A DNA stretch of 64,000 nt from an uncultured Candidatus Saccharibacteria bacterium (GTDB lineage: Bacteria; Patescibacteriota; Minisyncoccia; Phycocordibacterales; UBA9973): positions 3,697 to 67,696 of the forward strand of contig CAZKPK010000001.1 in assembly GCA_964554645.1 (NCBI GenBank), in the 5' to 3' direction. Every line of letters starts with the position of its first letter. The stretch's first letter is position 1. A program made the position numbers and the translations under genes. This document shows positions 8,391-59,601 of the stretch, one piece after another. The notes beneath the pieces are model-generated. The model ran no database searches and was not told the origin of the DNA. It saw only the letters and a program-made list of their open reading frames with translations.

Positions 8391-8437
8391 TCCACCCCGT
8401 CCTTTGATTACAAAGTCCACCCCTCAAGAGGGGAATC
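8391..8437. repeat. Family-A palindromic repeat unit (TCCACCCCGTC-ctttgattacaaag-TCCACCCCTCAAGAGGGGAAT)
   Basis: 47 nt identical to the copy at 16013-16061; contains the CCCCTC-AA-GAGGGG hairpin. Confidence 0.85.
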
Positions 8438-9009: not shown

Positions 9010-9522
9010 ATGCGCAATAGGCAACCATCCACCCCGTCTCGACTAAAGTCGAGTCACCCCTCAAGAGGGGAACGTCCACCCCGACGCAAGCGTCACCCCT
9101 CAAGAGGGGAATGGAATCCAAAATCTCTATATCCATATTGGGAAATTCCTAAAAACAAAATTTTGACTGATAGGGCAAAAGATTTAAGAAAGGCGGGTAA
9201 TTTATCTGAAGTTATTTTTTGGCAAACTTTTAAAGATAAAAATAAATTAGGTTTTGATATTGATAGACAAGTTATAATCGGCAATTATATTGTAGATTTT
9301 TTTATTCCCGAACTAGGTTTAGTTTTTGAGATAGACGGTTCAAGTCATGACGATAAGCTTGAATATGATGCTGAACGAGATGCTTTTATGAGAGATTTAA
9401 ATTTAAAAGTGGTTAGAATTCTTGATATTGATGTGAAGAAGAATCTAGGAAGTGTCTATCAATTTGTATTAGAAACAATACATAAAAGAAAAAAGGATGC
9501 ATTTGAATTATTCCCCTCTTGA
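9010..9522 (+). CDS. DUF559 / Vsr-like (very-short-patch-repair endonuclease fold) domain protein
   Basis: C-terminal 110 aa match the DUF559 architecture (IVDFFIPELGLVFEIDGSSHDD...YDAERDAFMRDLNLKVVRI). N-terminal 35 aa are a translation of repeat A2 (HPSRGE x2). The stop codon TGA lies inside repeat A3. The true start may be an internal TTG near 9160. Confidence 0.7.
   Translation: MRNRQPSTPSRLKSSHPSRGERPPRRKRHPSRGEWNPKSLYPYWEIPKNKILTDRAKDLRKAGNLSEVIFWQTFKDKNKLGFDIDRQVIIGNYIVDFFIPELGLVFEIDGSSHDDKLEYDAERDAFMRDLNLKVVRILDIDVKKNLGSVYQFVLETIHKRKKDAFELFPS
9027..9117. repeat. Family-A palindromic repeat, two tandem units
   Basis: ATCCACCCCGTC-TCGACTAAAGTCGAG-TCACCCCTCAAGAGGGGAA followed by GTCCACCCCGAC-GCAAGC-GTCACCCCTCAAGAGGGGAAT. 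Confidence 0.85.
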
Positions 9523-9598
9523 GGGGTACTCCGACTTCAGTCGGAGTGGGGTGGATGTATGAGGGGTGACCCGATGACCATCGGGTCGGGGTGGATAG
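9511..9598. repeat. Family-A palindromic repeat, inverted orientation (TTCCCCTCTTGAGGGGT-ACTCCGACTTCAGTCGGAGT-GGGGTGGAT plus a degenerate second unit)
   Basis: reverse complement of the A consensus; supplies the stop codon of the DUF559 gene. Confidence 0.85.
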
Positions 9599-14684: not shown

Positions 14685-14687
14685 AAA

Positions 14688-14735
14688 GACCACAGGTCAG
14701 ACCTGTGGGATTCCCATAGGTCTGACCTATGGAAC
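14688..14735. repeat. Family-B REP doublet (CCACAGGTCAGACCTGTGG plus CCCATAGGTCTGACCTATGG)
   Basis: two adjacent imperfect-copy palindromes between pilT stop and pilC start; second unit matches the REPs flanking the RAYT gene at about 34.1-34.8 kb. Confidence 0.8.
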
Positions 14736-15953: not shown

Positions 15954-15960
15954 GATTGAT

Positions 15961-16077
15961 TCTCCTCTTGAGGAGTACTCCGACTCAGGTCGGAGGGAGG
16001 TGGATGAGTTTTTCCACCCCGTCCTTTGATTACAAAGTCCACCCCTCAAGAGGGGAATCGCTACCCCTGTGGATAAC
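15961..16077. repeat. Family-A composite repeat (degenerate inverted unit plus forward unit identical to A1)
   Basis: TCTCCTCTTGAGGAGTACTCCGACTCAGGTCGGAGGGAGGTGGAT followed by TTCCACCCCGTCCTTTGATTACAAAGTCCACCCCTCAAGAGGGGAATCG. Confidence 0.85.
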
Positions 16078-18792: not shown

Positions 18793-19383
18793 ATGTTTAA
18801 GTTGAGTAAAAAAATAAAAAATAACAAAGGAATGACTTATATAGAACTTATTGTTGTTCTCTCTATTTTTGCCATTATGTCTTCCATTATTCTTTATAAT
18901 TATGGAGAATTTCAGGCAAAAGTGGATATCAAAAATTTAGCCAGCGATATCGCTTTGAAAATTGTTGAGGCGCAGAAGTCAGCGCTTTCTGGAAAATGGA
19001 CTTCTGGCGCGGTGGATGGTTGGAAACCATCTTATGGTATATATTTTAATACTTCCAGTGCTGATGAAAAAAAGAAGTTTACTTATTTTGCAGATTTTAA
19101 TAACGATAAAATATATAACGATACTCCGCTAGATACAATAAGTATTACAAAAGGCAATTATATAGAAAAAATAGAAAGTTGCGCAGGTTCTCCCACTATT
19201 TGCGCTTTGGTCACAAACTCCTTTTTGTCAATCATTTTTACAAGACCAAATTCTGGCGCAGTTTTTAGTTCCTTGAGTGGCATACTAACTGGTTTTGATT
19301 ATATTCAAATCACTATTTCCTCACCCCAAGGTAAAACAGCCTTAATAAAAATCTATCCTTCGGGGAGGATACAAGTAAATTAG
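18793..19383 (+). CDS. minor pilin / pseudopilin with class-III signal
   Basis: KGMTYIELIVVLSIFAIM N-terminus. Confidence 0.75.
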   Translation: MFKLSKKIKNNKGMTYIELIVVLSIFAIMSSIILYNYGEFQAKVDIKNLASDIALKIVEAQKSALSGKWTSGAVDGWKPSYGIYFNTSSADEKKKFTYFADFNNDKIYNDTPLDTISITKGNYIEKIESCAGSPTICALVTNSFLSIIFTRPNSGAVFSSLSGILTGFDYIQITISSPQGKTALIKIYPSGRIQVN

Positions 19384-19414
19384 GTTTTAGGTTCTAGCTA
19401 CTAGGTTCTAGTAA
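19381..19414. repeat. CTAG-rich direct-repeat motif (TAGGTTCTAG x2) immediately after stop codon
   Basis: taggttttaggttctagctactaggttctag; related copies at 37583-37628, 45747-45771 and 16970-17011. Confidence 0.6.
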
Positions 19415-20593: not shown

Positions 20594-23222
<2,629 letters not shown>

Positions 23223-29438: not shown

Positions 29439-31367
29439 ATGAAAATTTCTTATAATTGGCTCAAATGGTATATACCGGAAGCGCCTCCCGCAAACAAACT
29501 TGCGGATATTTTTAATTACCATATTTGCGAAGTGGAGAGTGTCCAACACCGAGTGTTGGACAAAGATAAAGATTGGATTTTTGATTTAAAAGTTTTGCCG
29601 AACCGCGCGCATGATTTACTTTCACATCAGGGAGTCGCTCGCGAGCTTGCTTCACTTTTAGATATCAAATATGTAGATCCCACGCCGAAATATAAAATTC
29701 CCGCCTCCGCCAAGGCTGCCCCCTTCGCTGAAGTGGCTACGAAGGCCAAGTCGGCGGGCAAGCCGGAATTAAAAATTGATGTTCAAACGCCTTTATGCAG
29801 GCGATATATGGGCAGAATTATAAGGGGAATAAAAATCGGTCCCAGTCCGGAGTGGATGGTGAAGCATTTAGAATCAATAGGACAGAGAAGTATAAATAAT
29901 ATTGTAGATGCCGCCAATATTGTAATGTTTGATTGCGGACAGCCGACTCATGCTTTTGATCTGGATAAAATGAATAGCAAGATAATAGTGCGCGAGGCAG
30001 AAAATGACGAAGACATAACCACTTTAGATAATCAGGGAATAAAATTAAAAAGTTCAAATATGGTGATTGTAGATTCTAAAAATATTTTAGCGATTGCCGG
30101 AATAAAAGGCGGGAAGATTGCGGAAGTGGACAATAATACAAAAAATATAATTCTTGAGGTTGCTAATTTTGATCCGGTTTCGGTGCGGAAAACAGCTCAA
30201 GCCTTTAATCTATTTACCGACGCGCGAAAGAGGTTTGAAAATGACCTGTCGCCAGAATTGGCACCATATGCCATGCGCGAACTCTCGGCTCTCATTTTTG
30301 AAATGTGTCCGGACGCTATTTTTGAAGATGTTGTGGATGTTTACCCCCACACCAATGATATTGGTGTGGGGGTTTATCCTGAAAAACAAAAGGAGAAAAA
30401 ACTTTCTTTTTCGGCTGAAAGAATTTCAAAAATTTTAGGACTCAAAGTTTCAGTTAAAGAAATAGAAAATATTTTGCAGAGATATAATTTTAGGTATAAA
30501 GAAAATAAAGGGAAATTTGAGGTTGTTGTGCCACCGATGCGTCTTGATTTAGCAATAGAAGAAGATATGGCGGAAGAGATAGGTAGAATTCTGGGATATG
30601 ATAAAGTAAAACCACAAATTCCCCACATGTCTGACATGTGGGAACCACAGGTTAATGAGATTTATGCAAAAATTTCCTGGGTCAGAAATAAATTATTGGC
30701 TGATGGATATTCCGAAGTGATGACTTATACTTTTCGAGAAAAGGGAGAAATAGAAGTGCAAAATAGCGCTTCCGATAAAAAGTTTTTGCGAACGAATTTA
30801 ACTGATGGATTGAAAGAAAGCGTTAAATTAAATCACGCCAATGCCCCGCTGTTAGGAATTGACGAAATTAAAGTTTTTGAAATTGGAACTGTTTTCAAAA
30901 AAGATAAAGAGCAGATAAATATTTGTTTTAGTGACAAAAAAAATATCACAGAAGTTTCTTTAAATGATTTTTGTAAAGATATGCTTTCTAGTGATTCTCC
31001 TCTTGAGGAGTACCCTTTAGGGGGAGGTGGAAAATTTATCCACCCCGTCGCAAGCGCCACCCCTCAAGAGGGGAATAGATTCAAGATGTGGTCTTTGTTT
31101 CCTTTCATTGCGCGCGATATCGCTGTCTTTGTGCCGGAAAAAATTAAGAGTTTGGAAATAGAAAAAATAATAAAAAAGAATATGGGAAATATGGTGATTC
31201 GAGGTCCGGAACTTTTTGATGAATTCAAAAAAGGCAATCAGATTTCTTATGCCTTCAGATTGGTTTTTCAATCTTACGATCGGACACTGACAGACGCAGA
31301 AGTGAATGAAATTATGGATAAAATAACTGACAAAATTAAGAAGAATAAAGGTTGGCAAGTAAGGTAA
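29439..31367 (+). CDS. pheT: phenylalanine--tRNA ligase beta subunit with in-frame Family-A repeat insertion
   Basis: B3/4, B5 and FDX-ACB-like domains. Residues ..SPLEEYPLGGGGKFIHPVASATPQEGN.. are encoded by the repeat at 30997-31078. Confidence 0.9.
   Translation: MKISYNWLKWYIPEAPPANKLADIFNYHICEVESVQHRVLDKDKDWIFDLKVLPNRAHDLLSHQGVARELASLLDIKYVDPTPKYKIPASAKAAPFAEVATKAKSAGKPELKIDVQTPLCRRYMGRIIRGIKIGPSPEWMVKHLESIGQRSINNIVDAANIVMFDCGQPTHAFDLDKMNSKIIVREAENDEDITTLDNQGIKLKSSNMVIVDSKNILAIAGIKGGKIAEVDNNTKNIILEVANFDPVSVRKTAQAFNLFTDARKRFENDLSPELAPYAMRELSALIFEMCPDAIFEDVVDVYPHTNDIGVGVYPEKQKEKKLSFSAERISKILGLKVSVKEIENILQRYNFRYKENKGKFEVVVPPMRLDLAIEEDMAEEIGRILGYDKVKPQIPHMSDMWEPQVNEIYAKISWVRNKLLADGYSEVMTYTFREKGEIEVQNSASDKKFLRTNLTDGLKESVKLNHANAPLLGIDEIKVFEIGTVFKKDKEQINICFSDKKNITEVSLNDFCKDMLSSDSPLEEYPLGGGGKFIHPVASATPQEGNRFKMWSLFPFIARDIAVFVPEKIKSLEIEKIIKKNMGNMVIRGPELFDEFKKGNQISYAFRLVFQSYDRTLTDAEVNEIMDKITDKIKKNKGWQVR
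30997..31078. repeat. Family-A composite repeat (degenerate inverted unit plus forward unit) inside pheT, in-frame
   Basis: CTCCTCTTGAGGAGTAC..GGAGGTGGA followed by ATCCACCCCGTCGCAAGCGCCACCCCTCAAGAGGGGAAT; same composite arrangement as 15961-16077. Confidence 0.85.
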
Positions 31368-33507: not shown

Positions 33508-34095
33508 ATGAAAAAATTAATCTTAGCTTCAAGTTCAAGCACAAGGAAAAATTTGCTTACAGAAGCCGGCTTGAATTTTGAAATTGATCCAAGTAGTTAC
33601 GAAGAAGATATAACATTATTAATGTCTCCAAAAGAATTAGTGGCTCATTTATCTTACGGTAAAGCAAAAGATGTAGCATCGAGGCACCAAGAAGCCATAG
33701 TTCTAGGAGCTGATACAATTATTGTCTATCAAGATAAAATTCTCGGTAAACCTCATACATCGGAAAGAGCTAAAGAAATGTTAAAAATGTTAAGTGGTAG
33801 GGCACACTTAGTTGTTACTGGTTTTACAATAATTGATACGAAAAATAATCATAGCATCTCCAAAGTTGTAGAAACAGAAGTGTTTTTCAAAAATCTCACA
33901 GATAGAGAAATAGATAATTATGTAGCTACCGGTGAACCACTGAATAAAGCAGGGGCTTATGCAATTTTAGAGAATGGTGGCAAATTTGTTAAAAAGATCG
34001 AAGGAAGTAGAACAAATGTGTCAGGTTTACCCATGGAGGAGTTAATGAATGTTCTAAAAAATTCCCATAGGTCAGACCTATGGGATGTGTTATAA
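33508..34095 (+). CDS. maf: Maf-like nucleoside-triphosphate pyrophosphatase; C-terminus encoded by a REP element
   Basis: KLILASSSSTRKNLL...GKP...; final residues ..NSHRSDLWDVL are a translation of REP copy B2. Confidence 0.85.
   Translation: MKKLILASSSSTRKNLLTEAGLNFEIDPSSYEEDITLLMSPKELVAHLSYGKAKDVASRHQEAIVLGADTIIVYQDKILGKPHTSERAKEMLKMLSGRAHLVVTGFTIIDTKNNHSISKVVETEVFFKNLTDREIDNYVATGEPLNKAGAYAILENGGKFVKKIEGSRTNVSGLPMEELMNVLKNSHRSDLWDVL
34063..34086. repeat. Family-B REP (TTCCCATAGGTCAGACCTATGGGATG)
   Basis: perfect palindrome; 5' flank of RAYT gene and 3' end of maf. Confidence 0.85.
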
Positions 34096-34102
34096 TAGCA
34101 GT

Positions 34103-34780
34103 ATGAGTCTCAGAGATTCGAATTTAGTGGAAAAAGAGTATTATCATATTTACAATCGCGGTAATGGAAAAAATAAAATTTTTAATTCCATAGAAGATTA
34201 CGATCGTTTTTGTAAACTTCTTTTTATTTGTAATTCTGAAAGAAGTTTTACATTCAGAGATTCAGTCGTAGATCAAAAAATTGATGCCTGGGATTTTGAA
34301 AGGGGAGAACCGCTTGTGGAAATATGTGCATGGGTTTTAATGCCTAATCATTTCCATATAATTTTAATTTCCCATAGGTCGGACCTATGGGATGAGAAGT
34401 ATAATCCAATAACGGAATTTATGAGAAAACTTTCTACGGCTTACGCTATGTATTTTAATAAGAAATATAACCGCACTGGATCTCTTTTTGAAGGAAAGTT
34501 TAAGTCTAAACATATTAGCAAAGATAATTATTTCCATTATTTATTTTCTTACATTCATCTTAATCCAATTAAATTAATCCAACCAGATTGGAAAGAAAAT
34601 GGTATCAAGAATAAAAAAGAAGCGATTGCTTATCTTATGAATTTTAAATATTCAAGTTTTCAAGATTTTTATGGTGTCTCTAGAAAAGAAGGAAAGATAA
34701 TAAATAAGAATTCGTTACCAGAAGATTTTAAATACAATCATGTTGAGGAACTTTTTGAATGGATAACTGATTCCCCATAG
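34103..34780 (+). CDS. REP-associated tyrosine transposase (RAYT; IS200/IS605-like Y1 HuH transposase)
   Basis: HIYNRG motif, HuH motif (PNHFHIIL), catalytic Tyr region (YIHLNP); flanked by, and interrupted in-frame by, Family-B REPs; stop codon TAG lies inside REP B4. Confidence 0.8.
   Translation: MSLRDSNLVEKEYYHIYNRGNGKNKIFNSIEDYDRFCKLLFICNSERSFTFRDSVVDQKIDAWDFERGEPLVEICAWVLMPNHFHIILISHRSDLWDEKYNPITEFMRKLSTAYAMYFNKKYNRTGSLFEGKFKSKHISKDNYFHYLFSYIHLNPIKLIQPDWKENGIKNKKEAIAYLMNFKYSSFQDFYGVSRKEGKIINKNSLPEDFKYNHVEELFEWITDSP
34369..34394. repeat. Family-B REP inserted in-frame inside the RAYT gene (encodes SHRSDLWD)
   Basis: TCCCATAGGTCGGACCTATGGGATG immediately after the HuH motif codons. Confidence 0.85.
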
Positions 34781-34799
34781 GTCAGACCTATGGGGAATC
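34769..34799. repeat. Family-B REP, extended perfect palindrome (GATTCCCCATAGGTC-a-GACCTATGGGGAATC)
   Basis: 15-bp arms; overlaps RAYT stop codon. Confidence 0.85.
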
Positions 34800-37357: not shown

Positions 37358-37582
37358 ATGGTAGTCCGAATGAGAAGCACAAAATCGCATACGAAAAATA
37401 GACGTTCGCATCATGCGTTGGCTAAGGCTAATTTTTCAAAGTGCGAGCATTGCAAAGCCTTGAAAAAACGCCATACAGTATGTTCTGCTTGCGGGTTTTA
37501 TCGAGGAAAAAAAGTTTTGGATCTAGTTAAGAAAACAGAAAAGAAACAGAAGAAAGAAAAAGCGGCTCAAGCAAAGAATTAG
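37358..37582 (+). CDS. rpmF: 50S ribosomal protein L32
   Basis: KSHTKNRRSHHAL ... CxxC ... CSACGFYRGKKV zinc-ribbon L32 signature. Confidence 0.8.
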   Translation: MVVRMRSTKSHTKNRRSHHALAKANFSKCEHCKALKKRHTVCSACGFYRGKKVLDLVKKTEKKQKKEKAAQAKN

Positions 37583-37628
37583 TTACTAGGGGCTAGTGGC
37601 TAGGGACTAGAACCTAGAAGCTATAACC
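37583..37628. repeat. CTAG-rich motif (ttactaggggctagtggctagggactagaacctagaagctat)
   Basis: member of the TAGGTTCTAG / CTAGAACCTAG motif family found immediately after stop codons. Confidence 0.55.
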
Positions 37629-37636
37629 TAATTTTT

Positions 37637-39948: not shown

Positions 39949-42117
39949 ATGCGACTCAAAACTCTTGAACTGAATGGCTTTAAATCTTTTTCTCAAAAAA
40001 CAGTTTTGGAGTTTGATAACAGTATTGTCTGCATTGTCGGTCCGAACGGTTCAGGAAAATCAAATGTAGTAGAAGCCATCCGTTTTGTCTTGGGCGAGCA
40101 ATCAATGAAATCAATGCGTGGCAAGACGGGCGTTGATCTCATTTTCAAAGGATCCAAAAATTTGCCTAGGAAAACGCGGGCGGCCGTTACAATATATTTC
40201 AATAACTCTGACAAAATTTTTAGGCTTGAGGATGGTGTAGGAGAAAACATGAATTTGAATTATGACACTATCAGCATAACGCGCCAGGTTTTCCCTGACG
40301 GACTCAATAAATATATTTTAAATGGGACAGAAGTGCGCCTGAAAGATATTCACCACCTTCTGGCCTCGGTTAACATAGGTTCTTCCGGGCATCATATTAT
40401 TTCCCAGGGCGAGGCTGATAGGATTCTGAATGCCAGCCCAAAAGATAGGAAGGAAATGGTGGAAGATGCGTTGGGGCTCAAAATTTACCAGTATAAAATA
40501 AAAGAATCTGAGAGAAAACTGGAAAGAACAGAGAACAATATGAAAGAAGTGACCATGTTGCGCAGAGAAAATGCTCCGCACCTTAATTTCTTAAAGAAAC
40601 AAGTAGAAAAATTTGAAAGGGCGAAAGAAATGCAGGCAGAGTTAGCAATTCTCTACCAAGAATATTTAAAAAAAGAAAACGTTTATTTAAATAAAGAGAA
40701 GGAAAATTTTCTCGCAGAAAGAAATAAAATAGCCAAAGAACTGGAAAGTGTTGTTAGTAAAATTTCTCTGACTGAAGACAGTGGTTCAGCTAAGGGAAAT
40801 CAAAAAATAGAGGAGCTAAGAACTATTGAGCAAAAATTAAATGAAATCCGCAGCGCCAAGGGAGAAATGAACAGAAAACTGGGAAGAATTGAAGGGATGA
40901 TAGAGGCCAAACAGAATAGAGTTAAAATTTCTGGCCGGTGTCCCATGTGTGGCAGAGAGTGGGGGGAAATGAGCAAAGAACAACTCGAAAACAGAGAAAA
41001 CAATCAGCAAGAATTAGCAGAATTGAAAAATTCTCAAGCTGGTATTCTAACGCAGGTGCAGGAAATGGAAAATAAAGAGAAAGAGCTTGTCGATCAGATA
41101 GAAGAATTGAAGCAGGAAATAAATAAACAGATGGAAACCTTGCGCGATTTGGAGCGGGAGAAGTTCAGCTTTAAGGTTAGGCATCAGGAATTGTCTTCAG
41201 CTTTGGAACTGGTGCGCATCAAAGAAACGAATTTAAAAGGCAGGCTTGAAGCCTTTGAAAGTGAGATCAAAGAAGGTGTAGCGCTTATAGGTCAAGAGAT
41301 TTTGTCCTATCCGCCCGAGGCGGACCAGCCTTGGGCTGGTAAAGAAATAGATGAAACAAGGCAAGCTGAGTTAAAGAAAAAAATTGAGCGTTTGAAAATA
41401 AAATTGGAAGATGCCGGTCTTGGCGGCGGAGCGGAAGTTTTGAAAGAATTCAAAGAAGTTTCGGAGAGGGATAATTTTTTAGCGAAAGAAATGGAAGATT
41501 TATCTAAAAGCATGGTGGCGTTGCAAAAGCTCATAGAAGATTTAAAGGAAAAGATAGACACAGAATTCAAGGAGGGTATCAAAAAAATAAACAAAGAATT
41601 TCAAGAATTTTTCTCCTTAATGTTTGGCGGGGGGACGGGATCTCTTGCGATAGTGGTGGAGAATAAAAAGAGACGAAGTATGAGCGAAGAAGAGGCTAAA
41701 TTCAGCGAAGCTGAATCGCCCGACGCTTCTGAAGAAGCGTTTAGGGAAGAGATTGTTTTTGAACAGGGCATAGAAATAAATGTTTCACTTCCTCATAAAA
41801 AGGTCAAAGAGCTTCAGGCGCTCTCGGGCGGGGAGCGATCACTCACTTCTATTGCTCTTCTCTTTGCGATGTCGCAAGTGAATCCTCCGCCATTTTTGGT
41901 GCTTGATGAAACCGATGCTGCGCTGGACGAAGCCAACTCGCGCAAATATGGAGATATGTTGGAAAAACTTTCCAAACATTCTCAGCTTATTGTTGTTACC
42001 CACAACCGCGAGACGATGTCCCGCGCCGGCGTGCTCTATGGCGTAACGATAGGCGGAAATGACACCTCCAAGCTTCTTTCTGTTAAATTCGAAGAAGCCA
42101 CCCAAATTGCGAAATAA
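39949..42117 (+). CDS. SMC-family ATPase, short form (722 aa) with CPxCG zinc-hook-like motif in place of a hinge
   Basis: SMC N-head (LELNGFKSF...IVGPNGSGKSNVVEAIRFVLGEQS..S.RG), SMC C-head (LSGGERSLTSIALLFAM..PPPFLVLDETDAALDEAN; VLYGVT), long coiled-coil heptads, central ISGRCPMCGREWGE. Confidence 0.8.
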   Translation: MRLKTLELNGFKSFSQKTVLEFDNSIVCIVGPNGSGKSNVVEAIRFVLGEQSMKSMRGKTGVDLIFKGSKNLPRKTRAAVTIYFNNSDKIFRLEDGVGENMNLNYDTISITRQVFPDGLNKYILNGTEVRLKDIHHLLASVNIGSSGHHIISQGEADRILNASPKDRKEMVEDALGLKIYQYKIKESERKLERTENNMKEVTMLRRENAPHLNFLKKQVEKFERAKEMQAELAILYQEYLKKENVYLNKEKENFLAERNKIAKELESVVSKISLTEDSGSAKGNQKIEELRTIEQKLNEIRSAKGEMNRKLGRIEGMIEAKQNRVKISGRCPMCGREWGEMSKEQLENRENNQQELAELKNSQAGILTQVQEMENKEKELVDQIEELKQEINKQMETLRDLEREKFSFKVRHQELSSALELVRIKETNLKGRLEAFESEIKEGVALIGQEILSYPPEADQPWAGKEIDETRQAELKKKIERLKIKLEDAGLGGGAEVLKEFKEVSERDNFLAKEMEDLSKSMVALQKLIEDLKEKIDTEFKEGIKKINKEFQEFFSLMFGGGTGSLAIVVENKKRRSMSEEEAKFSEAESPDASEEAFREEIVFEQGIEINVSLPHKKVKELQALSGGERSLTSIALLFAMSQVNPPPFLVLDETDAALDEANSRKYGDMLEKLSKHSQLIVVTHNRETMSRAGVLYGVTIGGNDTSKLLSVKFEEATQIAK

Positions 42118-50119: not shown

Positions 50120-53100
50120 ATGAAAACTTTAAACACAACTGAATTTAATTCGATCGCCCTACGGCTTGCGTCTCCGGAACAAATCAAGGAGTGGTCATTC
50201 GGGGAAGTGACGAAGCCCGAGACGATAAATTATCGCACTGGCCGATCCGAACGTGGAGGTCTCTTTGATGAAAAAATATTTGGACCGGAAAAAGATTACG
50301 AATGTTATTGCGGAAAATACCGCCGGATTCGTTATAAAGACATCATTTGCGAGAAATGCGGAGTGGAAGTTACCCGTTCGATAGTGCGCCGAGAGCGAAT
50401 GGGACACATCGAGCTTGGAACTCCCGTCTCGCATATTTGGTTTCTGCGCGGGGTGCCTTCTCGGATGAGCATTCTGCTTAATATATCCGTGACGGATCTG
50501 GAAAAGGTAATATATTTTGCCGGATATATAATTACTAAAGTTCACGAGGATGAGAAAGAAGCTGTTATTGCCAATTTAGATAAGGAATACAAATCTAAAT
50601 TAAAAAATGCGACCGATGATGATACTCGAGAAAAATTGAAAAATCTGCTTTCTATTACCAAGAAAGAAATTGGGGAAATTTATGAAGGGAAAGTTCTGAA
50701 TGAAATTTCTTTTCATCACTATTCTTTGAAATACGGAACTTGTTTTGAGGCCAATATAGGCGCTGAAGCTATTTATTCCATTTTTAAAAATTTAGATTTA
50801 GATAAATTAAAGACCCATACCGAAAAGATGATCGAAAAAGCCAGCGTGGCTGAAAAAGAGAAATTACAGAAAAGGCTTTCTCTTATTCGCGCTATGACCT
50901 ATGCCGGAATTCGTCCGGAATGGATGTTTTTGACCGTTTTTCCAGTTATTCCTCCTGTCTTGCGCCCGATGGTCGCTTTAGATGGAGGTCGGCACGCGAC
51001 TTCCGACTTGAATGATCTTTATCGTCGAGTTATTAATCGAAACAATCGCTTGAAGAAGTTGAAAGAAATCAATGCGCCGGATGTAATTTTGCGAAATGAA
51101 AAAAGAATTATTCAAGAAGCGGTTGATGCGCTGATCGATAATTCAATTGCCAAACAGAATGATTCTGCCGCCATGAGTCAGTCTCAAAAGCGTCCCCTAA
51201 AATCGCTGTCAGACAATTTAAAATCAAAACAAGGTCTTTTCCGCCAAAATTTGCTTGGAAAAAGAGTAGATTATTCAGGACGTTCAGTGATTGTCGTTGG
51301 TCCCGAGCTTAAGCTTAATCAATGCGGATTGCCAAAACACATGGCGCTGGAACTTTTTAGGCCATTTGTAATTTCCAAAATCTTGCAAGCGGAATTGGCG
51401 TTTAATATTCGCGGGGCAAACAAGCTGATAGAAGAACGAGGGGGGGAAGTCTGGGCAATGCTGGAAGAGGTTATTGCCGGAAAATACGTTCTCTTGAACC
51501 GCGCGCCGACCCTCCATCGTTTAGGTATCCAAGCTTTTAATCCGATTTTAATCGAGGGAAATGCTATTCAAGTTCACCCTCTTGTCTGCCAAGCTTTCAA
51601 CGCTGACTTTGATGGAGACCAAATGGCAGTCTATGTTCCTTTGCTTGAAGAAGCGCAATGGGAGGCAAAAGAGTTCATGGCTTCGAACAAGAATTTACTA
51701 AAACCCCAAAATGGCGATCCGATCGTGCATCCGCGCATGGATATGGTGCTTGGAAGTTTTTGGATGACGAAATCAATAGAAGGAGAAGTGGGTGAAGGCA
51801 AGTATTTTTCTAGGCCCAACACCGCCGTCACGGCCTATGATTATGGGATTATTTCTATGCGGGCCAAAATAAAAGTTCTTCCAATGGATAAACCCAAGTA
51901 TAAGAAATTTAATGGAGAAATTTTTGAAACGACCGTCGGCAGAATCATATTCAATAGTATTTTGCCGGATGATTTTCACTATGTAAATGATGAAATGACT
52001 CAAGATAGGTTGTCTTCTCTCTTGGATGAATTGATTATGCACTCGGGAGTTGAAAATATTCCCCATATTTTGGATACAATTAAAGCTTTTGGTTTTAAAT
52101 ATTCTACTATCTCCGGCACCACTTGGGGGTTGGATAATGTTTCTGTGTCTTCCGAGAAACCGAAAATTATAGCCGAAGGCAAGAAACTTGAAAAAGAAAT
52201 AATCTCCCAGTGGCAGGAAGGTCTTTTATCTGAGGAAGAAAAATATCAAAAAGTTATTGAAGTTTGGACGCATATGAAGAAAAATTTGGAAAAAGTTTTA
52301 CCCAAGACGGTTGACAAACACAGTTCCACTTACGATATATTTACTTCTAAAGCCAGAGGCACGATGAGTTCTTTGATGCAGATGACTGGAATGATCGGGC
52401 TGATTCAAAATAACCAAGGCAAAACCCTGGAATTTCCGATTATCCCTTGCTATCAAGAAGGGCTTTCCCCAATTGAATATTTCGTTATTACTCATGGCGC
52501 TCGCAAAGGCGCTTCCGATACCGCGTTAAATACCGCCAAAGCTGGATATCTAACTCGCAGATTGGTTGATGTGGCGCAGGATGTGGTTATCACTGAAGTA
52601 GATTGCGGAACCAAAGAGGGCAGGATAGTTACCAAAGAAAATATTTCTGGAATTGAAATTCCGCTTTCAAAAAATATCCGCGGGCGGGTATTGGCGGGAG
52701 ATCTTAAAAACAAAAATGGCAAGGTAGTTTATAAAAAAGGGTTTTTAGTCACGAAAGAGGAGGCCTACAATATTGAAGGAGCAGGTTTTACGGAAGTATT
52801 TGTCCGTTCTCCTTTAACCTGCCGCACTGTTCATGGTCTGTGTGTCATGTGTTATGGACTTGACTTAGGACGAAATCGTTTAGTGGAGCTTGGCGAAGCG
52901 GTCGGCATTATCGCGGCTCAGGCCATCGGAGAACCGGGAACTCAGCTTACGCTTCGCACCTTTCACGCTGGGGGCGTTGCCGGCACTGATATTACCACCG
53001 GTCTTCCGCGTGTCGAAGAAATATTTGAAAGGAGAATTCCTAAAAATCCGGCCATTATTTCTGAAACCGATGGTGAAGTGATCGAAATAAAAATAAAAGA

Positions 53101-53791
53101 TCCCGCCTCTGGCGGGACAGGTGTAAAATCTGCTCACTCCCGCGATATTTCAGGATCCGGCGGGGAAAAAATAATCAAAGTGCTTTCAGATCTGGAAGAT
53201 AGTAAGGCGGGGGCTAAAAACGAAATAGAATATCTTGTTCCGTTTCACAGAATGCCTACCGTTAAAGCAGGTGATCACATAAAGAAAGGGGATCTCCTAA
53301 CTGACGGGTCAGCGGATATTGCTGAAATGTTTAAATTTGGCAACAAGGAATTAGTCGAAAATTATATAATTCGGGAAATAAACAAAGTTTATGAATTGCA
53401 AAGCGCTTCAATTTCCAGAAAGCATACGGAAATAATTATCCGCCAAATGTTTTCGCGCCGAAAAATAAAAGACGCGGGCGACACTAATTTTTCCATCGGC
53501 GATATTGTTGAGAATACCGCATTTATAGAAGAAAATCAGAGAGTTGCGCGCTTGGCGGTTAAACCGCCAAGCGCGCTTGGCGGTTTAACCGCCAAAGCAG
53601 AAACAGTGGTGCTTGGTATCACGGAAGTGTCGCTTCGCACTAAAAGTTGGCTCTCGGCGGCTTCGTTCCAAAACACCAATCGCGTTCTTATTGAAAACGC
53701 GGTCAAGGGCGGGGTAGATTCTTTGAGAGGGTTAAAAGAGAATGTTATAATCGGTAGGTTAATTCCGGCTGGAACTGGATTTAAAAAATAA
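50120..53791 (+). CDS. rpoC: DNA-directed RNA polymerase beta' subunit, with in-frame Family-C repeat near the C-terminus
   Basis: Zn-binding CxxC..CxxC, NADFDGD catalytic motif, trigger loop, C-terminal VIVGRLIPAGTG; residues RLAVKPPSALGGLTAKAE encoded by repeat 53547-53598. Confidence 0.97.
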   Translation: MKTLNTTEFNSIALRLASPEQIKEWSFGEVTKPETINYRTGRSERGGLFDEKIFGPEKDYECYCGKYRRIRYKDIICEKCGVEVTRSIVRRERMGHIELGTPVSHIWFLRGVPSRMSILLNISVTDLEKVIYFAGYIITKVHEDEKEAVIANLDKEYKSKLKNATDDDTREKLKNLLSITKKEIGEIYEGKVLNEISFHHYSLKYGTCFEANIGAEAIYSIFKNLDLDKLKTHTEKMIEKASVAEKEKLQKRLSLIRAMTYAGIRPEWMFLTVFPVIPPVLRPMVALDGGRHATSDLNDLYRRVINRNNRLKKLKEINAPDVILRNEKRIIQEAVDALIDNSIAKQNDSAAMSQSQKRPLKSLSDNLKSKQGLFRQNLLGKRVDYSGRSVIVVGPELKLNQCGLPKHMALELFRPFVISKILQAELAFNIRGANKLIEERGGEVWAMLEEVIAGKYVLLNRAPTLHRLGIQAFNPILIEGNAIQVHPLVCQAFNADFDGDQMAVYVPLLEEAQWEAKEFMASNKNLLKPQNGDPIVHPRMDMVLGSFWMTKSIEGEVGEGKYFSRPNTAVTAYDYGIISMRAKIKVLPMDKPKYKKFNGEIFETTVGRIIFNSILPDDFHYVNDEMTQDRLSSLLDELIMHSGVENIPHILDTIKAFGFKYSTISGTTWGLDNVSVSSEKPKIIAEGKKLEKEIISQWQEGLLSEEEKYQKVIEVWTHMKKNLEKVLPKTVDKHSSTYDIFTSKARGTMSSLMQMTGMIGLIQNNQGKTLEFPIIPCYQEGLSPIEYFVITHGARKGASDTALNTAKAGYLTRRLVDVAQDVVITEVDCGTKEGRIVTKENISGIEIPLSKNIRGRVLAGDLKNKNGKVVYKKGFLVTKEEAYNIEGAGFTEVFVRSPLTCRTVHGLCVMCYGLDLGRNRLVELGEAVGIIAAQAIGEPGTQLTLRTFHAGGVAGTDITTGLPRVEEIFERRIPKNPAIISETDGEVIEIKIKDPASGGTGVKSAHSRDISGSGGEKIIKVLSDLEDSKAGAKNEIEYLVPFHRMPTVKAGDHIKKGDLLTDGSADIAEMFKFGNKELVENYIIREINKVYELQSASISRKHTEIIIRQMFSRRKIKDAGDTNFSIGDIVENTAFIEENQRVARLAVKPPSALGGLTAKAETVVLGITEVSLRTKSWLSAASFQNTNRVLIENAVKGGVDSLRGLKENVIIGRLIPAGTGFKK
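53102..53118. repeat. GC-rich hairpin TCCCGCC-TCT-GGCGGGA inside rpoC
   Basis: perfect 7-3-7 palindrome in otherwise AT-rich coding sequence; a second related GGCGGGG at 53153-53163; similar CCCGCC...GGCGGGC pair in pheT at 29701-29759. Confidence 0.4.
53547..53598. repeat. Family-C palindromic repeat (GCGCGCTTGGCGGTTAAACCGCCAAGCGCGC plus TTGGCGGTTTAACCGCCAA) in-frame inside rpoC
   Basis: 31-nt perfect palindrome followed by second unit; same core as ligA copy. Confidence 0.85.
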
Positions 53792-55761: not shown

Positions 55762-57579
55762 ATGTCCTCATCAGTTGACCAAATTAAATCACGAATAGAC
55801 ATCCTCTCGCTTGTAAGCTCTTATATCAAGCTAGATAAGGCAGGAGCGAGTTGGAAAGCCAAATGTCCGTTTCATAATGAAAAAACACCCTCATTTTTTG
55901 TCTCGCCGGAACGGGGGAGTTATTATTGTTTTGGTTGCGAGGCTTCGGGAGACATTTTCACTTTTGTGGAAGAATTTGAAGGGTTGGATTTTAAGGGCGC
56001 TCTGAAACTTTTAGCAGATCGCGCAGGAGTGGTGCTTGAAGTTTACAGTCAGGAAAAGAAAGAAGTAGGTGAATTGATTTTTTTGGAGAAAGAAAAATTA
56101 TATCGAGTGATGGAAGAAACCACGAAGTTTTTTGAAAATAATTTTCCGCCCAAGGCGGATCAGCCTCGAGCTGAAAAGGAAATAAAAGAAGCATTAGAGT
56201 ATCTGAAATCGCGTGGTTTAACCGATAAAACTATCAAAGATTTTAGAATAGGTTATGCCATTCTTGATTGGCGAACACTTTATGATTACCTAAAGTCTAA
56301 GAATTTTTCTGATGAAGAAATAGAGCTTGCCGGATTGGCCAAGAAACCGGAAGACAAGACAAAAGCAATGTATGACCGCTTTCGCGGACGCATAATGTTC
56401 CCAATTTCCGATTCCAGTGGCCGGATTATTGCTTTTTCGGGAAGAATTCTGATTGATGATGGAAAATCGGCGAAGTATTTAAATAGTCCGGAAACCCCGA
56501 TATTTAATAAATCTTCCGTGCTTTTTGGCATAGATAAAGCAAAAGATTCCATCCGCAAAAATAACTTTTCCATTTTAGTTGAAGGGCAGATGGATTTAGT
56601 TTTATCGCATCAGGTCGGTTTTAAAAATACTGTTGCATCTTCTGGCACGGCGATGAATGATTCGATAATATCTAAAGAGAACATTATAAATAATTTAGGG
56701 CTTGTTTGCAGATTATCTAAAAATATCGTTCTGGCTTACGATGCTGACAAAGCGGGAGTGAATGCTTCCAATCGTTTTGCAAAAATCGCATTATCTTTAG
56801 GGATGGATGTGAAAGTGGCCAGTATGAGAGAGGGTGTCGATCCAGCCGATATTATCTCCAAAGAGGGTAAAGATGCGTGGCATCAAGCAATCCGAGATTC
56901 AAAACATTTTATTCCATTTATGCTAGAGCGAATCTTGAAAGATGCATCTGGTGATGGAAGAAAAGTGGGCAGAGGAATTCAAGAACGTCTTTTGCCTTTT
57001 CTGAAGGATTTAGACAGCGCGATGGAAAAATCCCATTTTATCAAACTTATTAGCGATAAATCCGGCATAGCTGAAAAAGCTCTAATGGAGGATTTGCAGA
57101 AAGTAGAGTCAGAATTGAAATATGAAACAGAAGAAATCAAAATCGCGAAAGAAAATGTGGACAAAAAATTGAGAAAAGATCCGATTGAACGCAGACTGCT
57201 GGGAATAGCTTTTTGGCAGGAAAGTGTTAAAAGTAAGATCGTAGATCCAGAAATCATTTTTGCGAAACTAGGTAAAGTGAAGGAATATTATAAAGACAAA
57301 AAAGAAGATTTAATTTTCGAAGCGGAAGCTTTTTATTCCAATAGCGAAAACTTACAAAAAGATGTGCGAGAGATGCTACTTTCGATTGAAGAAGAATATC
57401 TTAATGAGGAGCTTGTTAAGAAAATGATAGAACTTAAAAATCTGAAAGATGAAAAGGCTAAATCCAATGTAATTGGATCGCCCGACACTTCAGCAAAAGT
57501 GTTTAGGGACGAAGCAGAAATTTTAAAAAGAATAAATGAAATAAATAAGAGGAAAGAAGAAATTAAAAATAGTCGCTAA
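55762..57579 (+). CDS. dnaG: DNA primase
   Basis: CHC2 zinc finger ([30 protein letters not shown]), TOPRIM ([10 protein letters not shown]), DnaG core. Confidence 0.9.
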
Positions 57580-59316: not shown

Positions 59317-59542
59317 CAACCAAAACAACAGCTAGATTTTACTTAGCCAAAAGGTTAAATTTTTTTACAGCTTAAAATAAATTTTTAAGACCCTTTTTTA
59401 CTTTACTTAAATTTTTAGCATCCAATTTTTTTTATGTCTATTTGTTTATGCTTGATATCTTTAACCGAATAAATTTCCGGTTCATCAGCTAAAAAATCAA
59501 AACTCTTTGAATATGCGTTTATATTCGTTATTAATGAAAAGA

Positions 59543-59587
59543 CGCGTTAAAATTCCCCTCTTGAGGGGTGGCTCGGTAATCCGAGAC
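59543..59587. repeat. Family-A palindromic repeat, inverted orientation
   Basis: TTCCCCTCTTGAGGGGTG-GCTCGGTAATCCGAGAC-GGGGTGGAT. Confidence 0.85.
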
Positions 59588-59601
59588 GGGGTGGATGTAT
59601 T

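Follow-up and report, generated by a model that had tools for sequence, protein, structure and literature searches.

The window, a stretch of 64,000 nucleotides from an uncultured Candidatus Saccharibacteria bacterium (contig CAZKPK010000001.1), contains pheT, the gene for the 642-residue beta subunit of phenylalanyl-tRNA synthetase, at 29439–31367 on the plus strand, with pheS immediately upstream and gyrB immediately downstream. The identity of the gene, which had been proposed in an earlier sequence-only reading of this DNA, is confirmed by the Pfam domains of the open reading frame (ORF), namely B3_4 (residues 120–290), B5 (residues 323–387), a partial core-like (CLM) domain (residues 405–491), and FDX-ACB (residues 552–642), and by an NCBI entry of 100% identity (P0001, [quoted passage not shown]). 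Toward its 3′ end the ORF holds an 83-nt palindromic segment (30994–31076), which is the subject of this study. The sequence-only reading had placed an in-frame composite of a dispersed repeat, family A, at 30997–31078, and our boundaries agree with this to within 3 nt.

The segment has the structure ATTCTCCTCTTGAGGAGTACCCTTTAGGGGGAGGTGGA-aaattta-TCCACCCCGTCGCAAGCGCCACCCCTCAAGAGGGGAAT, that is to say, two inverted units joined by a short spacer, and it leaves the frame of pheT intact. It corresponds to residues D519–N546 (..SSDSPLEEYPLGGGGKFIHPVASATPQEGNR..) of the PheT translation, and the peptides predicted to be encoded by the insert are DMLSSDSPLEEYPLGGGGK and FIHPVASATPQEGNR. The left half (30994–31031, minus strand) is an A unit of the CTCCTC..GAGGAG variant with the hairpin CCCTTTAGGG and is read as (D)SPLEEYPLGGGG; the 7-nt spacer AAATTTA (31032–31038) varies between orthologs; and the right half (31039–31076, plus strand) is a canonical TCCACCCCG-[hairpin]-CACCCCTCAAGAGGGGAAT unit, which is read as (I)HPVASATPQEGN. 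Folded as single-stranded DNA, the composite reaches -19.2 kcal/mol (z = -3.4 versus shuffles).

That family A is dispersed is borne out by its 16-mer core CCCCTCAAGAGGGGAA, which has 10 matches in the window (at most 3 mismatches) versus 0.39 expected; none of 100 shuffles reached 10. A unit in the plus orientation, A(+), consists of TCCACCCCG, a short hairpin of free sequence, and then (T)CACCCCTCAAGAGGGGAAT. The units are 38–46 nt long and the composites about 80–100 nt. The 222 units from the window and the fetched loci contain 136 different variable middle regions; in 47% of the middle regions, versus 3.6% after shuffling, a stem of 5 or more perfectly matched base pairs forms. The units are most commonly arranged head to head as (-)(+) pairs, ~10 nt apart, and the doubly changed, yet self-complementary, box CTCCTC..GAGGAG occurs in exactly one half in 38 of 42 pairs. 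The pheT copy shares this asymmetric architecture with an intergenic (-)(+) composite at 15959–16058 (units 15959–16005 and 16013–16058), downstream of a T2SS-F/PilC-like gene.

The insert lies outside every Pfam domain of PheT, between the truncated core-like domain and FDX-ACB, with the last helix of the core-like domain (residues 508–515) before it and the anticodon-binding domain's first strand (residue 556) after it. The PheT chains of the PDB align to residues 45–436 and 552–634 of the query only, on either side of the insert. Residues 517–554 are predicted with a pLDDT below 50 and without secondary structure (AlphaFold model, 40 orthologs), which agrees with the loop that the sequence-only reading had asked to be checked, the loop being a predicted disordered linker. 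Comparison with the shortest orthologs revealed that the insert is no pure addition, and that it took the place of some 12 residues (..FSLEPRSYNLEA..) in an older linker. The claim of a peptide insertion therefore holds for its in-frame part, but not as a simple addition of about 27 residues.

Comparison of 120 PheT orthologs (60–70% identical) and 80 genomic loci revealed the same A composite at the same pheT site in about ten other species (Paceibacteria/Nomurabacteria, at least 9 genomes), as found in the orthologs P0002, P0003, P0004, P0015, P0029, P0037, P0092, P0099, and P0100 and at the loci L001, L003, L007, L015, L030, L034, L035, L121, and L154. The ~27 residues, which had been expected to be specific to one lineage, thus recur at this position in other species, where the same palindromic DNA codes for them, and no repeat-free relative among these orthologs was found to encode the same peptide in non-palindromic DNA. 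Across the A-bearing pheT genes, the element has 56 conserved nucleotides that are 96–100% identical (mean 98.9%), whereas third codon positions at identical amino acids of the best-conserved flanks are only 50% identical, that is, saturated. Because the element remains ~99% identical between saturated flanks, it is not evolving as neutral linker DNA. The left junction also differs, lying after DFCKDMLSS(D) in the window and after EFCx(D/N) at other loci, which argues that insertion happened at least twice. The composites in pheT are 79, 82, 88, 91, and 124 nt long, with all differences being multiples of three, and contain no stops; in L121, the spacer of the composite itself harbours another, nested palindrome.

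Eight further recurring insert classes, which are mutually unrelated, occupy the site in other orthologs. These classes are GC-rich (0.41–0.64 versus 0.32–0.45 for the locus), and each folds as one long hairpin. They appear to be scattered over the PheT tree, although the neighbour-joining tree is star-like, with long terminal branches, and poorly resolved. As judged from these sequences, the pheT linker is an insertion hotspot with turnover. An empty site in relatives, which the sequence-only reading had led us to look for, was not clearly found among the orthologs: The shortest linkers (..LEPRSYNLE..) are composed of a heptamer-periodic CTAG repeat, and hence no truly repeat-free empty site was identified.

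The CTAG repeat (..GGGCTAG TGGCTAG GGACTAG AACCTAG AAGCTAT AACCTAA..) occurs in the window at 19377–19411 and 37570–37634, just upstream of two genes. An exact match of 21 nt to this intergenic DNA is present in L029 (6642–6662) and in L037 (6273–6293), and the pheT linker of L029 matches the full 23-nt pattern of the repeat. One of the eight classes, class E, which occupies the pheT linker in L004 and L008, also lies in frame in pheS of the same loci, at a homologous site between DTFxIK and LVLRTH (~9437–9465 in L004 and ~9442–9469 in L008), and in a third gene (~2265–2292 in L004 and ~3323–3350 in L008). The outer stems of the class-E copies, 15–25 bp long and perfectly complementary, differ from copy to copy.

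An exact-pattern scan of metagenome contigs returned at least 120 stretches with an exact A unit. Among the metagenome stretches listed, ~18% of A units lie deep inside long ORFs. According to Pfam, the ORFs with in-frame A units encode UvrB, PurD, RsmA/KsgA, UvrD, TrmD, TatD, an AIRS-domain protein, and HsdS, and the element occupies the same site in different organisms in UvrB (two) and PurD (three). All 9 composites deep in ORFs have the CTCCTC half first and are read as SPLEEYP...TPQEG; A units in ORFs almost always read SPLEEYP...TPQEGN. One length class modulo 3 accounts for 8 of these 9 composites, versus a 14/11/8 split outside ORFs. Such a shared frame and length class is the expected product of a translation filter. 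In intergenic DNA, the A units occur on either strand.

Family A is also associated with a nuclease gene. A DUF559 ORF (9010–9522, plus strand; PF04480, E = 1.5e-21), which encodes a predicted Vsr-like PD-(D/E)xK nuclease and is a candidate autonomous partner of the A repeats, has two tandem A(+) units (9028–9073 and 9075–9112) at its 5′ end, so that its first 34 codons run through both of them. Its TGA stop codon is located inside an A(-) unit (9510–9555), which is followed by a partial A(-) unit (9560–9595), both on the minus strand. In a repeat search, the inverted arms flanking the ORF were 47 nt long and 81% complementary, and the right half of the pheT composite grouped with the copy at 9075–9118 at 91% identity. 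The closest solved relative of the protein is PDB 3hrl_A (E = 4e-9). Across 120 homologues and the distant copies, conservation is seen at D, E-x-D-G-x-x-H, and R, and the window protein has a nuclease domain of the Vsr/DUF559 clan with its catalytic-type residues intact. Two solo units complete the family in the window: an A(+) unit that separates pilM from the ORF next to it (8391–8436) and, at 59535–59595 on the minus strand, an A(-) unit (59552–59595) preceded by a relic of the 3′ coding end of a DUF559 gene (..KDALKFPS*).

The same coupling recurs elsewhere. Close DUF559 homologues abutted by A units are present in 9 of 120 loci selected for A (among the matches listed) and in at least 5 genomic contexts, namely after rpoD, before map, at the window site, in frame in hsdS, and in an organism whose TGA codons are read as Gly; by contrast, 1.27 Mb of pheT loci gave only one 41-residue DUF559 fragment. 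A protein search returned 799 DUF559 homologues, of which the best 120 clusters were analysed in detail. These clusters are 73–91% identical, versus 60–70% for PheT, so that DUF559 is the better conserved of the two within the same genomes; on one contig (JARLIG010000009.1), for example, DUF559 and PheT are 85% and 65% identical, respectively. As in the window, A units overlap both ends of the DUF559 gene in more than 100 homologous clusters. Among the best 120 clusters, 84 have an xFPS C-terminus, which corresponds to a stop inside the A(-) box, and at least 74 have the N-terminal peptide encoded by A(+) (..STPS..HPSRGE or ..PPLKRG). Two DUF559 genes only 33–35% identical to that of the window each lie between inverted copies that belong to other palindromic families; the element nested in the pheT composite of L121 is one of these families. 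At the rpoD–dsbA site, L201 carries a whole DUF559 element, and the window has the solo A(-) unit with eight relic 3′ codons.

Two of these contexts have features of their own. In L118 (1895–2173), a DUF559 gene beside A units contains in-frame TGA codons in place of the Gly codons of its relatives (..RKQ*ILSEV.. and ..KKL*WDID..). This suggests a host with genetic code 25 (of the Gracilibacteria/Absconditabacteria type) and hence spread of the module across deep lineages of the candidate phyla radiation (CPR). In L126 (minus strand), L141 (307–2142), and L192, an A(-)-DUF559-A(+) module is inserted without a frameshift into the conserved central part of HsdS, the specificity subunit of type I restriction-modification systems, giving an ORF of 596–612 residues with Methylase_S and DUF559 domains.

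From these observations, we consider the pheT segment to be, with a probability of roughly 0.7, a nuclease-less, non-autonomous, translated copy, similar to a MITE (a miniature transposable element with inverted repeats), of a mobile palindromic element associated with DUF559. The common mobile form would be a head-to-head pair with the compensated variant CTCCTC..GAGGAG in one of its halves. One such pair may have landed in the disordered PheT linker in front of FDX-ACB, displacing ~12 older codons. The insert would persist because it has no stop in its present orientation and frame and because its Pro/Gly/Glu-rich peptide would form a harmless loop, as the conservation of frame suggests; the insert is thus presumed to be translated and is probably neutral. 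The linker would be one of the few insertion-tolerant places of PheT and would therefore be hit repeatedly, with successive palindromic elements replacing one another or nesting in one another. Full-length members of the family are units of ~0.5 kb in which A units overlap both ends of the DUF559 gene. DUF559 may act on the A units and spread them by cleavage followed by repair or copying, in the manner of a homing endonuclease, and the solo composites would depend on DUF559 in trans.

More tentatively, and at somewhat less than even odds, the A-unit/DUF559 modules may form an unrecognised class of minimal mobile elements of ~0.5 kb in Patescibacteria. Such an element would consist of a Vsr-like PD-(D/E)xK nuclease gene with both ORF ends inside structured palindromic units; the repeat family would differ with the DUF559 subfamily; and two-unit derivatives lacking the nuclease would move from species to species. 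These derivatives would enter the same permissive loops of conserved genes (pheT, pheS, uvrB, purD, and others), be translated, and compete for the site, and their palindromes would be kept perfect by templating at the DNA level.

Several points weigh against this main reading of the pheT composite as a copy of a DUF559-associated mobile element. (i) The solo composite has the order (-)(+) and the usual DUF559 element the order (+)ORF(-), and hence the composite is no simple internal deletion of the (+)ORF(-) form. (ii) At the pheT, intergenic, and other-gene junctions, no target-site duplication was found beyond the ATTC..GAAT ends of the element itself, so that classical cut-and-paste transposition is not evident. 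(iii) The analogy to homing is incomplete, because a single nuclease can hardly recognise many different empty target sites. (iv) A search with a chimeric query for PheT with an embedded DUF559 gave none among the best 120 matches, which were all at most 643 residues long and without PF04480; the idea that the pheT composite is the footprint of a DUF559 insertion, like those in hsdS of L126 and L141, was thus without support. (v) The PheT tree is star-like, and recurrent insertion is therefore argued mainly by the junction differences and by the contrast in identity between element and flanks. (vi) Seven other genomes have no A unit besides the pheT copy within about +/-10 kb; the copy could be old and conserved for another reason.

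This last thought leads to a different explanation, in which PheT has long had the segment by vertical descent and retains it for its peptide or for its tether length, the intergenic copies being secondary. The same peptide at the same site in about 10 species, the frame that is always kept, and the isolation of the pheT copy in the seven genomes agree with it. However, equally close orthologs have eight unrelated peptides or a 16-residue linker at this site, so no particular sequence is required; the block is ~99% identical as DNA, beyond its peptide, while the synonymous sites of the flanks are saturated; the same DNA occurs in many unrelated genes, in intergenic regions, and around DUF559 genes; and the segment is predicted to be disordered. 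We regard vertical inheritance as unlikely. Still less probable is a functional structure of the pheST mRNA (a regulatory, stabilising, or excised RNA) with an incidental coding frame, despite the strong predicted hairpins, the small hairpins that vary in sequence but keep their pairing, and the compensated changes in stems. The lengths of the pheT composites, which are stop-free and differ by multiples of three, are as expected for translated DNA; A units occur on both strands of intergenic DNA; and no Rfam family matched at the gathering score in the whole window, or at E <= 1 in 30900–31180.

The way in which the stems change bears further on an RNA function. In several insert classes of pheT, pheS, and elsewhere, the core is conserved and the outer stem of 10–25 bp is specific to the location yet perfectly complementary. 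In class G, both sides changed in 13 of 31 pairs among six sequences, and the outer stem is without G-U intermediates. The single stem mismatches in the pheT inserts outside the short class comprise 14 G:T and 24 A:C against 1295 Watson–Crick pairs (p = 0.14), which gives no support to RNA-level selection on the stems. Because there is no wobble bias on the sense strand, the arms stay complementary through a process acting on DNA rather than through selection on the sense RNA; the sequences indicate maintenance by templating or by correction of one arm from the other. A third alternative is that the palindrome was made in place by intra-strand template switching (quasi-palindrome correction), without a mobile element. 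The location-specific and perfectly complementary outer stems of many inserts, the stem of L004, which extends into the conserved F-R codons, and the unique 14-bp palindrome at 30343–30373 in pheT, with its single copy in the window, are in its favour. The A blocks, however, also occur in identical form in other genes, between genes, and in other phyla-level lineages, and local templating cannot produce such a composite. Template switching is thus a very improbable source of the A composite, the least probable of those weighed here, and may explain the growth of the outer stems in the other classes.

With the pheT segment taken as a derivative of a DUF559-associated element, its resemblance to known systems can be considered. 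Ogata and colleagues reportedly described in 2000 the Rickettsia palindromic elements (RPEs), which are said to lie in frame in protein genes with the inserted peptide expected on the protein surface. To our knowledge, no enzyme that mobilises RPEs is known. Family A resembles them as a set of short, dispersed palindromic repeats of a small genome that occur in frame in conserved or housekeeping genes without inactivating them, and the insertion into protein genes without disruption is a feature of RPE type (for reviews on RPEs, see PMC10969869 and PMC1779305). The host, a Nomurabacteria metagenome-assembled genome (Patescibacteria/CPR), belongs to an unrelated phylum, and the two are likened by behaviour. 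Family A differs from RPEs in that its units are shorter and modular (conserved boxes plus a free hairpin), that its site in one gene is occupied by many families, and that it is tied to a nuclease gene. The sequence-only reading of an RPE-like selfish repeat tolerated in a core gene is thus apt as to behaviour but too narrow; it overlooked that the linker is a hotspot, that elements turn over there, and that DUF559 is a candidate mobilising gene.

MITEs with a parental insertion sequence, such as the Correia elements and the Coxiella QMITEs (PMC5896051), are likewise small non-coding inverted-repeat elements with many copies, some of them in frame, and have longer relatives with the same ends that carry a gene overlapping the terminal repeats. 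The traits of this type in family A are its 83-nt length at pheT, two inverted units, no coding capacity of its own, and at least 120 metagenome stretches. A gene-bearing relative with A units at both ends exists as well, but its gene encodes a DUF559/Vsr-like PD-(D/E)xK nuclease of 120–170 residues, which is no known transposase and not of the DDE, HUH, or serine type. The solo form, moreover, has the opposite unit order, and a classical MITE was rejected for the missing target-site duplication.

The extragenic palindromic repeats known as REP sequences and the bacterial interspersed mosaic elements with their REP-associated tyrosine transposases (RAYT, TnpA-REP; PMC3733652) are also similar: They are GC-rich hairpins of 20–40 nt in a low-GC background, often form inverted pairs, and flank the gene of a presumed mover enzyme. 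REPs are, however, extragenic and have a GTAG or CGTC head, whereas A units start with TCCACCCCG, end with GGGGAAT, and are frequent in ORFs. In place of a Y1 (HUH) transposase, the flanked gene encodes a PF04480 DUF559 protein; a RAYT elsewhere in the genome was not searched for. The REP/RAYT assignment thus failed on extragenic location, head motif, and Y1 transposase.

The Vsr/DUF559 clan contains proven homing endonucleases, including stand-alone gene inserts (PMC3424549; PMC2677866). The Vsr-like (EDxHD) homing endonucleases, for example I-Bth0305I (PMC2677866; PMC3424549 for the clan VSR/DUF559/DUF2726), share the fold clan with the window nuclease. Like it, they are small selfish genes inside conserved genes, including as stand-alone in-frame or fracturing inserts, are distributed patchily, and are better conserved than the genes of their hosts. 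Indirect signs that empty alleles may be cleaved and copied into are, for family A, the shared sites in pheT, uvrB, and purD across species and the higher conservation of DUF559 relative to host genes. The known members, found mostly in phages, reside within group I introns or inteins or separate the halves of a gene, and their ends carry no repeat units. By contrast, DUF559 here is bracketed by structured repeats with hundreds of solo copies. An intein was rejected for the pheT insert, which has 27–28 residues, far below ~130, ends in ..EGN followed by R/K/E/L, and is without the His-Asn pair and the +1 nucleophile.

GC-rich hairpins in an AT-rich genome are known from the var1 GC clusters of yeast. 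The mitochondrial coding palindromes of Nematomorpha (PMC6649704) are perfect inverted repeats in translated genes, with both arms coding and with pairing at the DNA level. They are organellar, mostly specific to one locus, and without a nuclease gene, in contrast to the dispersed families with shared conserved cores described here. In the literature searched, nothing specific was found on in-frame palindromic elements in CPR/Patescibacteria or on DUF559/Vsr-like genes with inverted repeats.

In-frame palindromic repeats in essential genes are already known from Rickettsia, Coxiella, and organelles, and in-frame insertion is thus not new by itself; what is added here is the association with DUF559 and the multi-family hotspot. 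One linker of an essential enzyme serves as the shared landing site for at least nine palindromic families across related species. The identical element in hosts whose synonymous sites are saturated points to ongoing traffic of short elements between supposedly streamlined genomes. The coupling to DUF559 provides a testable candidate for the mover of the repeats, a question still open for RPEs, and a candidate function for DUF559. The long, location-specific perfect stems without wobble bias point to a palindrome-keeping process that acts on DNA inside coding sequence. In CPR proteomes, palindromic inserts inflate the apparent protein divergence and loop content, for which annotation and alignment pipelines should allow. 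If the modules do form a class of their own, this would give a role to DUF559, a very common domain of “unknown function,” and would explain much of the loop-length variation of CPR proteins.

The description of PheT as otherwise conserved was overstated by the sequence-only reading, as the gene holds three further perfect palindromes (29540–29562, 30343–30373, and 30622–30642). In the AlphaFold model, two of these lie within low-confidence segments and the third lies beside one. The palindrome at 30343–30373 (ACCCCCACACCAAT-gat-ATTGGTGTGGGGGT) has a perfect 14-bp stem and encodes 11 extra residues (HTNDIGVGVYP), which are absent from the 29 other orthologs displayed; the VYP codons are duplicated on both of its sides, and it corresponds to a loop modelled with low confidence (residues 305–316). 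The other two have 10-bp stems. That at 30622–30642 resembles the CCCATAGGTCnGACCTATGGG family (72–76% identity to reference copies) and encodes HMSDMW, which is two residues more than in most orthologs and common to P0003. At the site of the N-terminal palindrome (29540–29562), other orthologs carry ..PLLSEEGVGGG.. inserts. A second insertion site of PheT is located in the core-like domain, after FEIGTVF.K (L020, L023, and L075; P0079 and P0088), where GC-rich DNA encodes peptides of the ..KPARNAS..AGG.. or GSASGG type. Four PheT C-terminal fragments of 257–271 residues, with CLM and FDX-ACB only, come from short contigs (P0247, P0250, P0269, and P0275) and may be truncations at contig ends or genes split near the hotspot.

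Palindromes also lie in other genes of the window, all with uninterrupted ORFs: ligA (21045–23222; palindromes at 21353–21375, 21533–21555, and 21763–21804), an SMC/RecN-like gene (39949–42117; palindromes at 41310–41346 and 41723–41740), rpoC (50120–53791; palindrome at 53552–53595), and dnaG (55762–57579; palindrome at 56145–56181). They belong to other repeat families and include CTTGGCGGTTTAACCGCCAAG and TCCGCCnnAGGCGGA pairs. Their presence in essential replication and transcription genes indicates that in-frame palindromes are genome-wide and no peculiarity of pheT. A further family, CCCATAGGTC-n-GACCTATGGG (14685–14733, 34060–34084, 34367–34391, and 34770–34794), is located at or across gene boundaries (maf and its neighbours), sometimes as tandem pairs.

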